Shown one piece after another: positions 28,105 through 31,809 of a DNA stretch of 64,000 bases (position 1 is the first letter of the stretch; the number at the start of each line of letters is the position of its first letter). The stretch spans positions 66,800 to 130,799 of the forward strand of contig PDPR01000011.1 of NCBI GenBank assembly GCA_002749285.1, read 5' to 3'. Origin of the DNA: Maribacter sp. (GTDB taxonomy: Bacteria; Bacteroidota; Bacteroidia; Flavobacteriales; Flavobacteriaceae). Below the pieces are notes generated by a model. It ran no database searches. It was not told the DNA's origin and saw nothing but the letters and a program-made list of their open reading frames with translations. A program made the position numbers and the translations under genes.

Positions 28105-29100
28105 CTATAAAGTTCCGTTGGCCTCTACCCATTTAAAATGGTATTGGTCCTTGGGAAATGACATCCTTTCGGAAATACGTTGCAACCTATCTGGCAATTT
28201 CATTAAATAATCACGGGCCTTTTCAGCCTCATCACTCAGGCTCCTGACGGCATCCAACTGCCAATATGAGTTCAATTTCTTGAGAATATCAATATAATCC
28301 TGTGCCGTGTAAACACCCAAACGTTGTGCACAGTTGGAGAAATTCTCAAAGGCCGTACCTATACTCCCCCCGGATTCCCGCAAAAAATGTGCGGGCATGA
28401 CAATTTTCCTCTTCATCATATCGGCAAAGGCCAACATCATTCCCGAAGGGTCTTCCCCAAAGATATTTTTCACAAACTCACGATACGCCAAATGATGTCG
28501 CATTTCATCCCCGGCAATGATGGCACACATCTTACCCAAAAGGGTATTACCCTTCTTCTTCGCCATCTGACCTACCCGTTTGTGCGATATATTCGTCGCC
28601 AACTCCTGAAATGATGTATAGACAAAATTCTTATAGGGATCCCTATCGGTTCCTATATCGAACCCATCGGCTATCAAATGCTGGGTGGTAATTTCCACTT
28701 CACGCATATTAACCCTCCCGGATAAATATAGATACTTGTTCAGGACATCACCATGACGATTCTCTTCCGCAGTCCAGGCCCGCACCCATTTGGACCAACC
28801 ATTTTTTTCCCCGTCATGCTGGTTTACCCCCTCAACATCCATCAACCATGCCTCATAAGTGGGCAAAGCCTCCTCAGTAATGGTATCGGCCACCATGGTT
28901 ACCCAGAAATCATAACCCAATTCCTTGGATTCTTCACGCAACTGTTCAATATCATTCAAAAAACAATCACTTTTAGGGTCGGGGAGAAAATCGGATGGTT
29001 GCCAAATATCATCAATGGCAATCAAAAAAAAATCTATGAATTCCCCCACTTTAGGCTCAATAGCCTGCATTACTTCCAATCTTATATTCTTCTTTATCAT
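28105..29100 (-). CDS. acyl-ACP desaturase (soluble di-iron)
   Basis: ITEEALPTY, WTAEENRHG, FQELAT, DEMRH motifs. Confidence 0.95.
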   Translation of the reverse strand: MIKKNIRLEVMQAIEPKVGEFIDFFLIAIDDIWQPSDFLPDPKSDCFLNDIEQLREESKELGYDFWVTMVADTITEEALPTYEAWLMDVEGVNQHDGEKNGWSKWVRAWTAEENRHGDVLNKYLYLSGRVNMREVEITTQHLIADGFDIGTDRDPYKNFVYTSFQELATNISHKRVGQMAKKKGNTLLGKMCAIIAGDEMRHHLAYREFVKNIFGEDPSGMMLAFADMMKRKIVMPAHFLRESGGSIGTAFENFSNCAQRLGVYTAQDYIDILKKLNSYWQLDAVRSLSDEAEKARDYLMKLPDRLQRISERMSFPKDQYHFKWVEANGTL

Positions 29101-29112
29101 ATTTTATCAATA

Positions 29113-29269
29113 AACTCGTTTAAATTTTTTGGGTTTAAGCGAAAATCACTGGTTTTTTGTTCTGTTGAAGGCTTTTTCAGTTTGCATAGCAGGGCTACGG
29201 AAGTAAGAAAAGACAAGAACAGGGCGGAAAATGGCAATTTTCTGGCAAGCCGAAAAGTTTAAATGAGTT
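29113..29269. mobile_element. ~157-bp palindromic MITE-like element
   Basis: Terminal IR AACTCGTTTAAA / TTTAAATGAGTT; nested pairing arms; central TAGC-agg-GCTA hairpin; no coding capacity. Confidence 0.7.
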
Positions 29270-29361
29270 CCAATATACGATTATATTGGTCTGTATAAGA
29301 ATAGTAAGGGATTAAAATGCATTTACTCTTCGGTTTGCGGTTTGGCACTTAGCCTTATTGT

Positions 29362-30012
29362 TTATCCTTTTAATATTACCTCGATCGCTTTTTCGAGTAA
29401 TTCATCTTTTCCATTTCTTATGCCTTCAATTGTTGACTTGATCTCTATGTCAGGTACTATTCCAATTCGTTGGGTTTCCTCCCCATTTGGGTAATTTACC
29501 CCAATACCTTAAATTATCGTCAAACCAAGCTTCACCCTTTCCCGAAAGTATTCCCGCAATAAAGATATTCTCCGCTGCCTCGGGGCAATCAAGTGTTATG
29601 CTATATTTCTGCCAATCCTTAGTTCCCGTTATTTTTTGATCTTGCATATTATCAAATGCCAAAGAACCTCCATTTCCGTCAACTCGCAACAGCAAACCTG
29701 CAAATCCGTTTCCAACGTTTTTGATTTTCATAAAACCTTCAAGTCTTATTGTTTTCCCCTCATAATTTGCTGGGATCTTATATGCGATACTTCCAAAAGA
29801 ACTTCCGGTCTGGCCTGATGTGATTTTTCCCGATTTTTTTCCCGAATGAGCATTTTCATCTATCGTCAACTCATAGTTTCCCCACTTCAACCATCCGTCA
29901 GAAAGTGATTTTCCCTCTTTTTGATTTTCAAATCCAAGGTTGGATTCCCCAGTTTTTTACCCTTGACAATTTAAAGGGATAATTGTCAATAAGGCAACCA
30001 GTATTTATCCAT
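29362..30012 (-). pseudogene. S41-family peptidase remnant: N-terminal domain joined out of frame to the C-terminal tail
   Basis: N-part ILVALLTIIPLNCQG*KTGESNLGFEN...GKGEAWFDD; junction near 29515; then GIGVNYPNGEETQRIGIVPDIEIKSTIEGIRNGKDELLEKAIE, an S41 C-terminus. Confidence 0.8.
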
Positions 30013-30026
30013 CGTTTTCGTTTTTT

Positions 30027-30109
30027 TAACTTGCACACAACGTTGGGTATATGAAGTGTAGCCTACCGATAGGCGGCTATGATTTCATATACAGTGTTGT
30101 AGCCGGTTA
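30027..30109 (-). other. attC-like imperfect palindromic recombination site
   Basis: Paired arms ACAAC/GTTGT, GTATATGAA/TTCATATAC and TAGCC/GGCTA with asymmetric spacers, directly between a stop codon and the next ATG. Confidence 0.65.
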
Positions 30110-30112
30110 TCC

Positions 30113-30955
30113 TTATGCTTTTTCAAGTTCAAAAATTGTTATTTCGGGTCTAACGTTAAATCTCACTTGCCACAAATGTCCAACTGCTCGATTAACATAT
30201 AAGGTTCTACCGTCATTCAAATCTATTTCTCCTTGTGAATATCTCTTGTTTTTAACAGGTAACATTGGTGCATTTAAAAATGGTGGTTTACATTGTCCTC
30301 CGTGTGTATGTCCAGCTAGAATCCAACCTTTATATCCGTTCCAAACGTCTAAATCACAAACATCAGGGTTGTGACATAACAACAGATTAGCTTTGTTTTG
30401 GTCATAGTTGTCCATCACTTTTCCAGGTGCAAAATTCAATGCCCAATAATCATCAAATCCGATTATGTTCAAACCCGAAATATCCACTTGGTCATTTTTA
30501 AGCACTTCAATTCCTGCATTTGTCAATTGCTCCGAGATTTTATCCGCTACATTTTGTTCAGCCCAATTTTTCCCATAGTTGTGATTGCCAAGTATCCCTA
30601 CAGTTCCTATTTTTCCTTTAACCGTGTATCTCAGTACTTCATCCAATTGCCCAAATTGTTTTTCGTTCTCATAACTTACATAATCTCCTGTGTAGACAAC
30701 AAAATCAGGGTTGAATTCCTGCGCTTTTTTAAATGAGTCAATTATATAATTATAGTCAAATCTATTTCCTATATGTATATCACTAATTTGCATAAGTCTT
30801 TTCCCTATCAGATTATCTGGTAGATTGGCAATTGGCATTTTACGTTTCACAAATTCCAACCAAAAAGGCTCAATTTGCCAAGAGTAAAGTCCAGTCAAAA
30901 ATCCAGCCCCGACTGTTCCCCAAAATGTTCGTTCTATAAATTTTCGTCTGTTCAT
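30113..30955 (-). CDS. YkuE/YaeI-like metallophosphoesterase (probable cassette gene)
   Basis: SDIH, GDYV, GNH, LCHNPD, GHTHGGQ, VRPEIT motifs; Tat-like MNRRKFI start. Confidence 0.9.
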   Translation of the reverse strand: MNRRKFIERTFWGTVGAGFLTGLYSWQIEPFWLEFVKRKMPIANLPDNLIGKRLMQISDIHIGNRFDYNYIIDSFKKAQEFNPDFVVYTGDYVSYENEKQFGQLDEVLRYTVKGKIGTVGILGNHNYGKNWAEQNVADKISEQLTNAGIEVLKNDQVDISGLNIIGFDDYWALNFAPGKVMDNYDQNKANLLLCHNPDVCDLDVWNGYKGWILAGHTHGGQCKPPFLNAPMLPVKNKRYSQGEIDLNDGRTLYVNRAVGHLWQVRFNVRPEITIFELEKA

Positions 30956-31083
30956 TTTTACGTTAGCAACAGTAATCAACCAGCTCGGTAAGATTAGACA
31001 TATTAATTTGTTAATCTAACCTGGATATGCCCATCTGGGGAATTGGCTACGACAATGGCATTTAGATAACGTTTCCCTAAATC

Positions 31084-31809
31084 TTAGTTCCTACCCTTCT
31101 CATTTAGGTAAAAAGTATGTACCGGATCGCTTTGCCAAACCTCCTTGGTGTGTGCATCAATAATCGACAATGGGCCATAAAAAGCCGCCCCTGTATCAAC
31201 ATTCCAGACATTGGCAGCATTTTGTGGTGTGGTTTCCCCTATGCGTGTTACCGGTGTATGCCCAATGAATATCTCGTCATAATGTGTTAACCTCTTTGGG
31301 TAATATGGGTGGTCTTTCCCTAGTGAAGGGTTCAGACAGAGTGCCAATTCCCATAAGGTCCTATCCCAATAAAAAATTTTCGTGAAATATTCGTGTTCAA
31401 CCCCTTTGACATTCGTAAAGCCTGCATGTAAATACATGCGGTTACCCGAATCCAAATGATAGTTGATCAACCGATCAAAGAACCTGATGTGGCCATCTAT
31501 GGTGGACCTACCGGCCTTTGCATAGGATGCCACAGTTGATGCCCCCCCATGTTGCAGCCAGACAGGATTTTCCTCTTCTGTTCGAAGCCAATTAGAACAA
31601 AGTTCATCGTGGTTTCCCCTTAAGAAAATACAATCATGGGTCTGTTCTAGACCGATCAAAAAGTCAATTGTTTCCACGGCATCACTCCACCCATCAACGT
31701 AATCCCCTAAAAAGATCAATCTATCGTTATGCGAAATGCCAGCTCGCAACAATACTTGTTCGAGTGCTTTTACCCCGGAATGAACATCCCCTATCACTAA
31801 AGTTCTCAT
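31084..31809 (-). CDS. calcineurin-like metallophosphoesterase (Ser/Thr phosphatase, PphA/PrpA type)
   Basis: IGDVH, LGDYVDG, RGNHD, HAG, IGHTP, VDTGA. Confidence 0.9.
   Translation of the reverse strand: MRTLVIGDVHSGVKALEQVLLRAGISHNDRLIFLGDYVDGWSDAVETIDFLIGLEQTHDCIFLRGNHDELCSNWLRTEEENPVWLQHGGASTVASYAKAGRSTIDGHIRFFDRLINYHLDSGNRMYLHAGFTNVKGVEHEYFTKIFYWDRTLWELALCLNPSLGKDHPYYPKRLTHYDEIFIGHTPVTRIGETTPQNAANVWNVDTGAAFYGPLSIIDAHTKEVWQSDPVHTFYLNEKGRN

Follow-up and report, generated by a model that had tools for sequence, protein, structure and literature searches.

We found that positions 31052 to 29287 of the window, a 64,000-nucleotide stretch of a Maribacter sp. genome (contig PDPR01000011.1), very probably represent a two-cassette insertion made by an integron-like gene-capture system of the Bacteroidota, now orphan and decaying. 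The inserted stretch is approximately 1.77 kb long and lies on the minus strand, as do all features of the window described below. Cassette 1 carries an intact metallophosphoesterase gene, MPE1, followed by an attC-like folded site, and cassette 2 carries the remnant of an S41 family peptidase gene followed by a degenerate half-site. A first-pass annotation of the region had described a boundary string, the phosphoesterase gene, and a hairpin on the minus strand, all of which are present, and had taken them together as a single integron-like cassette at 30027-31053. The proposal of a Bacteroidota cassette that lies away from a recombinase and whose attC-like folded site pairs by its outer arm with the cassette's own 5' end is supported by the analysis presented here. 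The limits given for the unit had to be revised, as the mobile stretch continues to approximately 29287 and includes the second, decayed cassette.

Comparison with the same locus in related genomes revealed where the insertion begins and ends. To its left is the host gene MPE2 (31084-31809), which encodes a 241-residue metallophosphoesterase or Ser-Thr phosphatase-like protein (Pfam Metallophos), and to its right is a host gene encoding an acyl-ACP-type fatty acid desaturase (28105-29100; Pfam FA_desaturase_2). The nearest named relatives of the flanking host genes are those of Maribacter species. Orthologues of MPE2 at 68 to 86% identity were found in 17 of 18 genomes of the same genus, and orthologues of the desaturase at 88 to 95% identity in all 18, directly after MPE2 in 16. 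The gap between the two genes is only 64 to 75 bp in 16 of the 18 genomes, the remaining two assemblies being too fragmented to judge. BLAST homology between the window and its closest relatives ended at 31060 and restarted at 29105. The spacer of the relatives reads ...TCTAAATATTATTG|ATATAATTGTACATT...ATG, and both of its halves can be recognized in the window. The left junction reads ...TCTAAATGCCATTG|TCGTAGCCAATT..., where the left part of the host spacer (31053-31083) aligns with the relatives' TAAAATTTAGGACAACTTTATCTAAATATTATTG|ATATAATTG and ends in ...CCATTG; the host part thus stops at ...ATTG|, and its last base, at 31053, is the G of a G|AT target site. The right junction reads ...TTATACAGACCA|ATATAATCGTATATT..., where the right part of the host spacer, ATATAATCGTATATT (29272-29286), agrees with the relatives' ATATAATTGTACATT at 13 of 15 positions. 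The inserted stretch was delimited as 31052-29287 because the host spacer is split at both ends and because the last 163 bp or so ahead of the desaturase gene are a separate repeat resembling a miniature inverted-repeat transposable element (MITE).

Absence from relatives does not alone give the polarity of such a difference, as precise site-specific excision would restore the empty site, and the segment might instead be ancestral to the genus and have been lost from the other lineages with no insertion event at this locus. We regard this as very improbable. The empty site was found in 16 of the 16 assessable genomes of the genus, including the closest ones (86 to 95% identity of the flanking proteins). 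The relatives of both cassettes in other orders, at 84 to 96% identity, are much closer than any in the genus. The G+C content of the insert (0.371) is below that of the flanking genes (0.43-0.436) and of the genome (0.419), in agreement with the AT-richness of the region that had previously been judged by eye. Even if ancestral, the segment would still be a pair of mobile cassettes.

Cassette 1 begins with the boundary box (G)TC GTAGCCAATT (31041-31052), homologous to the (G)TT GTAGCCAATT found ahead of the phosphoesterase open reading frame (ORF) in other genomes, and continues through a unique leader of approximately 82 nt (30959-31040) into the intact MPE1 gene (30113-30955), with its ATG at 30955 and its stop codon at 30115-30113. 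The product is a 280-residue YaeI-like metallophosphoesterase (Pfam PF00149, Metallophos) with an N-terminal hydrophobic segment that contains RR; its score with the YaeI model NF008460, 157 bits, is under the cut-off of 188. A search of 40 related genomes revealed no orthologue of MPE1 above 35% identity, and with the empty site in 16 relatives the gene is not part of a syntenic core. More than 100 homologues at 84 to 96% protein identity were found in Flavobacteriales (including Winogradskyella), Cytophagales (Reichenbachiella), and Saprospiraceae, in unrelated neighborhoods. At 28 such loci the DNA homology, 77 to 93%, starts at the ATG or the boundary box and extends into the hairpin, at most to its end. 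The surroundings are not shared, as 25 different contexts were counted upstream of these copies and 23 downstream. In the other copies, (G)TTGTAGCCAATTAGA stands directly before the ATG, and the sequence upstream of the box differs from copy to copy, often ending in ...TCATACAC-AAGACC, which is the 3' half of another site. The string GTCGTAGCCAATT at 31053-31041 of the window is the same box. The string CTGTTGCTAACG just ahead of the ATG was also considered as the true 5' boundary and was dropped, as copies in metagenomes showed GTTGTAGCCAATT to be the conserved box.

The folded site of cassette 1 (30030-30106) is 77 nt long, scored 89.6 bits with the covariance model R2 described below, and reads, 3' of the MPE1 stop codon, AACCGGCTACAAC-ACT-GTATATGAA-...-TTCATATAC-CCAAC-GTTGT. 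Its outer box AAC (30098-30096) is followed by the spacer ACT, the inner arm GTATATGAA (30092-30084), and a variable tip with a TAGCC/GGCTA stem; the inner arm TTCATATAC (30055-30047), the spacer CCAAC, and the outer box GTT (30041-30039) then complete the site. Crossover would take place at G|TT, between 30041 and 30040. Folded as RNA, the hairpin had a predicted energy of -28.7 kcal/mol (z = -4.2), which none of 200 shuffled sequences equaled, and folded as DNA, -11.7 kcal/mol (z = -2.1). The outer arm, AACCGGCTAC-AAC, is complementary to the 5' boundary of its own cassette at 10 of 13 positions, just as the first-pass annotation had counted. Within the 130 nt ahead of the ATG no other match extended to 9 or more positions, and 0.9% of shuffled versions of these 130 nt gave a match as good. 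All three mismatches become G.T wobbles when the bottom strand is paired, that is, 13/13. The hairpin is homologous throughout to those of two other loci, L053 and L124, until the sequences diverge from the GTT on (GTT|GTGTGC here, GTT|CTCTCC there). The cores of the window site, CTACAAC and GTTGTGT, keep the purine/pyrimidine pattern beyond AAC/GTT only in part. Rfam yielded nothing at gathering thresholds across the whole window. Both BLAST and the covariance model indicated that the hairpin is single-copy in its own genome, BLAST adding one chance match of 24 nt; the many near-identical copies within a genome that mark dispersed repeats of the repetitive extragenic palindrome or MITE type were not seen.

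Examination of other cassette loci revealed that the hairpin belongs to a large family of sites in co-oriented arrays. A crude finder based on regular expressions and stems recovered few sites and missed most, and covariance models were used instead. These were seeded from four homologous hairpins (alignment A3), because a MAFFT alignment of 11 sites had mis-registered the 5' halves and the next alignment had mixed two registers, and were then grown by model-guided alignment (A4, A6). With the resulting models R1 and R2, 55 sites were found in 17 sources, always on one strand only within each locus, and directly behind ORF stop codons in both of the loci whose ORFs were mapped (L034, L209). 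Sites are present in 12 of the 18 genomes of the genus. The consensus is C.....YAAC-AAT-GTRTATR...TCATAYAC-(N)AAC-C-GTTRY, with AAC and GTT invariant in 54 to 55 of the 55 sites and the next position covarying as C-G or T-A. The non-canonical GTTGT/ACAAC cores initially proposed for the system have therefore to be given up: the system has the AAC/GTT of classical attC sites as its invariant cores, and ACAAC/GTTGT is one variant. Across the family, 88% of the cells of the alignment at paired positions were paired, compared to 70% in shuffles and 24 to 39% in slid controls, and double-sided changes were counted in 186 cells, compared to 58 in shuffles; as the sites had been aligned to the model, these pairing counts are inflated toward the structure. 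In the 9-bp inner stem, 90% of cells were paired and 8 of the 9 pairs showed double changes. The spacers are 3 nt and 5 to 6 nt long and the tips vary from a few nucleotides to approximately 85 nt, and the 55 sites of alignment A6 fall into three length classes, 59-62, 71-86, and 137-142 nt. The tip of the long class, approximately 80 to 85 nt, is itself conserved.

The outer arms of one and the same hairpin do not pair beyond the fourth pair, and we examined their complementarity to the cassette ends instead. For 37 independent pairs of adjacent sites, the 8 nt before AAC were compared with the first bases of the cassette, taken as the 8 nt that follow GTT in the preceding site. The mean complementarity of the outer arm was 4.43/8 to the boundary of its own cassette, compared to 2.57/8 within the same hairpin and 2.35/8 in random pairs (Wilcoxon p = 0.001, Mann-Whitney p = 3.5e-9), and 20 of the 37 pairs scored at least 6. 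Such complementarity between an outer arm and the 5' end of the cassette to which it belongs is the hallmark of an integron.

These results bear on two simpler explanations of the hairpin. As the ends of each cassette are mutually inverted repeats, and the genome is rich in MITEs, cassette 1 could be a one-gene transposon or MITE-like unit with 13-bp terminal inverted repeats (GTTGTAGCCAATT ... AACTGGCTACAAC), mobilized by a transposase acting in trans. The repeat sequence differs for every cassette, with only AAC/GTT in common, and there is therefore no common end for a transposase to bind. Moreover, the conserved unit continues beyond the repeat, through the hairpin to the GTT, and units are arranged head to tail with one site per junction beside a tyrosine recombinase. 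No clear target-site duplication was seen at the locus; ATTG occurs near both ends, and its right copy lies beyond the MITE-like repeat. We consider a transposon of this kind extremely unlikely. The other explanation, that the hairpin is a mere terminator or mRNA-stabilizing stem-loop of an accessory gene and its match to the 5' boundary a matter of chance, would agree with a position 6 nt past the stop codon and with the good RNA fold, and is nonetheless barely credible. The hairpin is followed by an A-run rather than a T-run, and the terminator scan listed nothing there. Further, 55 sites behind unrelated genes have conserved AAC/GTT boxes, spacers, and inner arms, the outer arm follows the 5' end of its own cassette in the 37 site pairs, and the homology between gene copies stops exactly at GTT.

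The mispairs of the integron-like sites are not symmetrical between strands. A C.A mismatch is conserved at position 8 of the outer stem (...CAATT vs ...CAGTT) and is G.T on the bottom strand. Among mispairs of the hairpins on the coding strand, A.C (59) outnumbers G.T (29), each A.C becoming G.T on the bottom strand, and position 23/223 is A.C in 21 of 47 sites. No conserved single-base bulge, or extrahelical base, was seen in the consensus inner stem, and strand asymmetry would thus appear to arise from mispairs rather than from bulges. Because the C.A mismatch, the three mismatches of the window, and the excess of A.C all become G.T there, these features point to the bottom strand as the strand that would fold.

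The body of cassette 2 (29362-30040) is the remnant of a gene for a 735-residue S41 family peptidase, as indicated by its reading frames and by DNA homology to copies in L219 and L220 (Gillisia and Maribacter sp. X9). The remnant is 84 to 87% identical to 735-residue S41 peptidases, and the 735-residue protein is found at 76 to 87% identity across many Bacteroidota genera. Homology to the two copies begins exactly at the GTT (30041), skips L219:1503-3053, and stops at the stop codon; the 5' boundary of cassette 2 is TT GTGTGCAAGTT. The first-pass annotation had noted a next ATG after the hairpin; this ATG is present, and opens a frame of only 8 codons, the broken start of the S41 gene. An internal deletion of approximately 1.55 kb lies at 29520-29516, and the last 48 codons with the stop (29364-29362) are retained. 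Pfam gave no match to this 48-residue C-terminal fragment, and its identity was assigned from the DNA homology to the S41 copies. Downstream is the degenerate 3' half of the cassette 2 site (29287-29336; ...TTCTTATACA-GACC-A|), which is 82% identical to L035:2265-2314. The window and L035 diverge right after ACCA, which is where the insertion ends at its right, 29287|29286. Two further observations concern the S41 gene. A perfect 9-bp inverted repeat, TTGACAATT...AATTGTCAA, lies at 29960-29995, just after the broken start, and in Gillisia sp. CAL575 (L219:1-803) the full-length S41 cassette lies at a contig end, beside a gene for an IS110-family transposase.

We then considered the enzyme that might act on these sites. 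In four related genomes, a tyrosine recombinase is encoded directly upstream of a co-directional array: L209, a Saprospiraceae metagenome-assembled genome with an array of at least 7 sites; L206, a Flavobacteriaceae metagenome-assembled genome; L211 (G012), where the recombinase gene occupies 2,616,756-2,617,853 of the genome sequence; and L212 (G002). A GTT is found approximately 30 to 60 nt after the recombinase stop codon, and because the bases that follow it agree, in three of the four arrays, with the outer arm of the site belonging to the first cassette, we regard the junction as attI-like. The junction takes the form ...(A/T)A-GTT-N7-ATT (at L209:10737-10800, and near L206 9860, L211 16700, and L212 19030), with the N7 match in the same proportion of arrays. 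Within the genus, 10 of 18 genomes encode the recombinase, as homologues 37 to 51% identical to the L206 enzyme. The earlier suggestion that cassettes are dispersed away from their recombinase holds for the present assembly; in relatives, the system does have a XerA/IntI-like recombinase, which adjoins the arrays.

The best match of the array-linked enzyme in the PDB was XerA (4A8E). The L209 enzyme aligned on both sides of the IntI-specific region of VchIntIA (2A3V), with 32 residues in place of 74. Judged by its sequence, the array-linked enzyme is a XerA/IntI-like tyrosine recombinase predicted to lack the IntI-specific insertion. No protein reached the 265-bit cut-off of TIGR02249, the integron integrase model, in this genome or in five cassette-carrying genomes. 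The best scores were 195 to 210 bits, and the best matches in these genomes were proteins of 400 to 570 residues that scored 213 to 225 bits with NF040815 (XerA / integron integrase) and contain Phage_int_SAM_4 and Phage_integrase domains.

Integrons comprise the IntI integrase, an attI site, and cassettes with attC sites, whose inverse cores are R'' (RYYYAAC) and R' (GTTRRRY). In attC, an unpaired central spacer sets these boxes apart from the inner arms L'' and L', and extrahelical bases of the folded bottom strand determine which strand is used. Integrons are taken to depend on an extra domain of IntI, the region of the I2 helix. A cluster of attC sites lacking an integron integrase (CALIN) comprises at least two attC sites within 4 kb with no integrase nearby. 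The window holds one intact site and one degenerate half-site 0.7 kb away. The two cassettes might be classical integron cassettes, a small CALIN derived from an IntI-type integron, with the Xer-like neighbor of the arrays being coincidental. Classical integrons have the same architecture, AAC...GTT cores, G|TT boundary, and GWT target, and in them, too, the outer arm pairs with its own cassette (bioRxiv 10.1101/2022.09.11.507474); moreover, insertion at secondary sites can create CALINs (Cury et al. 2016, PMC4889954). Against this stand the failure of any protein to reach the TIGR02249 cut-off, the four arrays that begin directly after a non-IntI recombinase, three of them with the attI-like match to the first cassette, and the frequency of both the sites and the recombinase in the genus. 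In addition, surveys of RefSeq found almost no integrons in Bacteroidetes (bioRxiv 10.1101/2022.02.28.482270). We therefore consider an origin from a classical integron improbable.

The above considerations suggest how a system of this kind would operate and how the present locus may have arisen. Each cassette would consist of one ORF followed by ...YAAC, a 3-nt spacer, an inner arm, a variable tip, an inner arm, a 5- to 6-nt spacer, and GTTR.... The array-linked recombinase would be the catalyst, cutting at G|TT in a site folded from a single strand, probably the bottom strand. Cassettes would be excised as circles between consecutive folded sites, and in the circle the outer arm could pair over approximately 13 nt with the first bases of its own cassette. 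Circles would be re-inserted at the head of an array or, rarely, at a G|WT genomic site. In the window, the phosphoesterase and S41 cassettes would have entered at TTG|ATA, within the 64 bp that separated the phosphatase and desaturase genes; whether they arrived jointly or in succession cannot be told. The G|AT target fits the 5'-GWT-3' attG rule of classical integrases (bioRxiv 10.1101/2022.09.11.507474). Later decay would account for the internal deletion in the S41 gene, the degenerate second site, and the change of GTT to GTC at the left end.

Expression of MPE1 could be provided by the host. Upstream of the insertion, an SPFH gene, a zinc-ribbon gene, and MPE2 form a unit on the minus strand, of which MPE2 is the last gene, and both cassettes are co-oriented with both flanking host genes. 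The terminator scan detected no terminator-like site between this upstream operon and the cassettes. Because of the co-orientation and because no such site intervenes, read-through expression of MPE1 from the upstream operon is plausible.

Several observations weigh against the interpretation of the locus as a two-cassette insertion by such a system, in addition to the inflation of the pairing counts already mentioned. Of the site pairs tested for own-cassette complementarity, 17 of 37 scored below 6/8, probably because of missed sites or decay. Model R2 did not detect the 3' site of cassette 2, and in that cassette the outer arm and the 5' boundary are not complementary. The right junction was therefore placed by the 50-nt similarity to L035 and the 13/15 match to the host spacer. 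At the left end, the boundary is GTC rather than GTT, and the unexplained 82-nt leader parts the boundary box from the ATG. This leader is absent from all other cassette copies, in which the box is directly followed by AGA-ATG, and a second copy of it was found neither in this genome nor in the fetched loci. The 68%-complete assembly of this genome yielded no recombinase homologue and, with the covariance model, no second site. Finally, recombination by the array-linked enzyme is a prediction from sequence.

Other features near or related to the insertion were also noted. The MITE-like repeat of approximately 163 bp (29108-29270) lies in the remaining spacer before the desaturase start, has the terminal inverted repeats ACTCATTTAAAC... 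and ...GTTTAAACGAGT, and is unrelated to the cassettes. At least 20 copies, 84 to 94% identical, are spread over 13 contigs of the 2.07-Mb assembly, and the copy in the window occupies the promoter region of the desaturase gene. An alternative delimitation, a 1.95-kb insertion reaching to the desaturase start with ends marked by ATTG direct repeats, was dropped when the last 163 bp were recognized as this separate element and the host spacer was located at 29286-29272. More distant homologues of the phosphoesterase, at 62 to 74% identity, were found in L050, L058-L061, L063, L065, L067, L070, L071, L076, L099, L107, and L112 (Polaribacter, Tenacibaculum, and other Flavobacteriaceae). These look like ordinary chromosomal genes, have no attC-like site, and always have the same response-regulator-like ORF after them; the cassette may have been recruited from a gene of this type. 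The sole plasmid match was a 69%-identical metallophosphoesterase gene (NZ_AP025315.1:18062-18892) on a 554-kb plasmid, a megaplasmid, of Fulvitalea axinellae, and the phage collection searched contained no match to the phosphoesterase cassette. Among the sequencing runs listed, none contained the stretch.

Among known systems, the closest is the integron, especially the sedentary chromosomal integron of the "inverted integrase" type, and CALINs (PMC4889954, bioRxiv 10.1101/2022.02.28.482270). As in integrons, each cassette has one mostly promoterless ORF and then an imperfectly palindromic site, in which AAC...GTT enclose inner arms, an unpaired spacer, and a variable tip; the boundary is G|TT, and the outer arm complements the first bases of the same cassette. 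Arrays are likewise co-oriented, with an attI-like site and a neighboring tyrosine recombinase at their start, orphan cassettes are found off the platform, and the mispairs are biased toward folding of the bottom strand. Unlike the integron integrases, the recombinase described here is most similar to XerA and is shorter by approximately 42 residues in the IntI-specific insertion. Its gene points in the same direction as the array in each of the four that were examined. The sites differ in an outer stem of approximately 13 nt, a second AAC/ATT box, the conserved C.A mismatch (G.T on the bottom strand), spacers of 3 nt and 5 to 6 nt, the lack of evident extrahelical bases in the consensus inner stem, and size classes of approximately 60, 75, and 140 nt. 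The host phylum, too, is one regarded as almost free of integrons, given the IntegronFinder surveys of RefSeq (Neron et al. 2022, bioRxiv 10.1101/2022.02.28.482270). We have not classified the system as a classical integron because the IntI insertion, the defining feature of the enzyme, was looked for and is absent.

The nearest published system of the Bacteroidota is rAID-1 of gut Bacteroidales, in which a XerD-like recombinase is accompanied by co-directional arrays of low G+C with repetitive intergenic sequences "reminiscent of integrons" (Ross et al. 2019, bioRxiv 10.1101/471110). Its definition requires that the XerD-like recombinase at the 5' end share more than 44% identity with BF9343_RS08045 (bioRxiv 10.1101/471110). 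The further feature of at least two co-directional, low-G+C downstream genes with repetitive intergenic sequences was found in L209, L211, and L212, while the window has no recombinase. The rAID-1 arrays were described for gut Bacteroidales with immunity genes as cargo, in contrast to the phosphoesterase and protease genes of the present cassettes. The first-pass annotation had taken the system as a candidate for an undescribed one; it is not wholly so, as rAID-1 is a published analogue, although the anatomy of a folded site, a crossover point, own-cassette pairing, and secondary-site insertion form no part of that description (bioRxiv 10.1101/471110). Relatives of IntI without the insertion are themselves already known as sequences, because the insertion is not conserved throughout the "integron-like" subgroup of simple tyrosine recombinases according to the passages of Smyshlyaev et al. 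(2021, PMC8138268) on these enzymes, and those passages tie no cassette arrays or sites to the insertion-less members.

The position of the two cassettes can be compared with attG insertion, in which cassettes enter outside att sites at 5'-G|WT-3' (Loot et al., bioRxiv 10.1101/2022.09.11.507474; see also the earlier work of Recchia and Hall cited in PMC4889954). The present cassettes similarly lie outside any att site, at a G|WT position of the genome, with a host promoter upstream that could express them. The attG work was carried out with IntI1-3 in E. coli, whereas the locus described here is a natural event in a flavobacterium, with two cassettes and presumably a non-IntI enzyme. It is also a before-and-after case, with the empty site in 16 relatives, both junctions readable, and a target that fits G|WT.

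A broader interpretation, to which we give an even chance, is that the system represents a sister lineage of integrons widespread in Bacteroidota. A Xer/XerA-like recombinase without the IntI-specific domain would act in it on folded, single-stranded attC-like sites, the choice of strand would depend on G.T/A.C asymmetry and on a long outer stem specific to each cassette rather than on extrahelical bases, and the present locus would be a natural off-platform insertion of the attG type. If so, the IntI insertion would not be required for cassette recombination at folded sites, and integron-type gene capture would be older or more widespread than the IntI family. Whether folded-site recombination needs that insertion becomes a testable question, as does the travel of accessory genes in an ecologically dominant marine phylum, where near-identical genes (84 to 96% protein identity) have spread between orders of Bacteroidota. 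The cassette logic of integrons, with AAC...GTT sites, G|TT crossover, pairing with the cassette's own end, and arrays adjacent to a recombinase, would thus be encountered here with an enzyme that lacks the extra domain of IntI.

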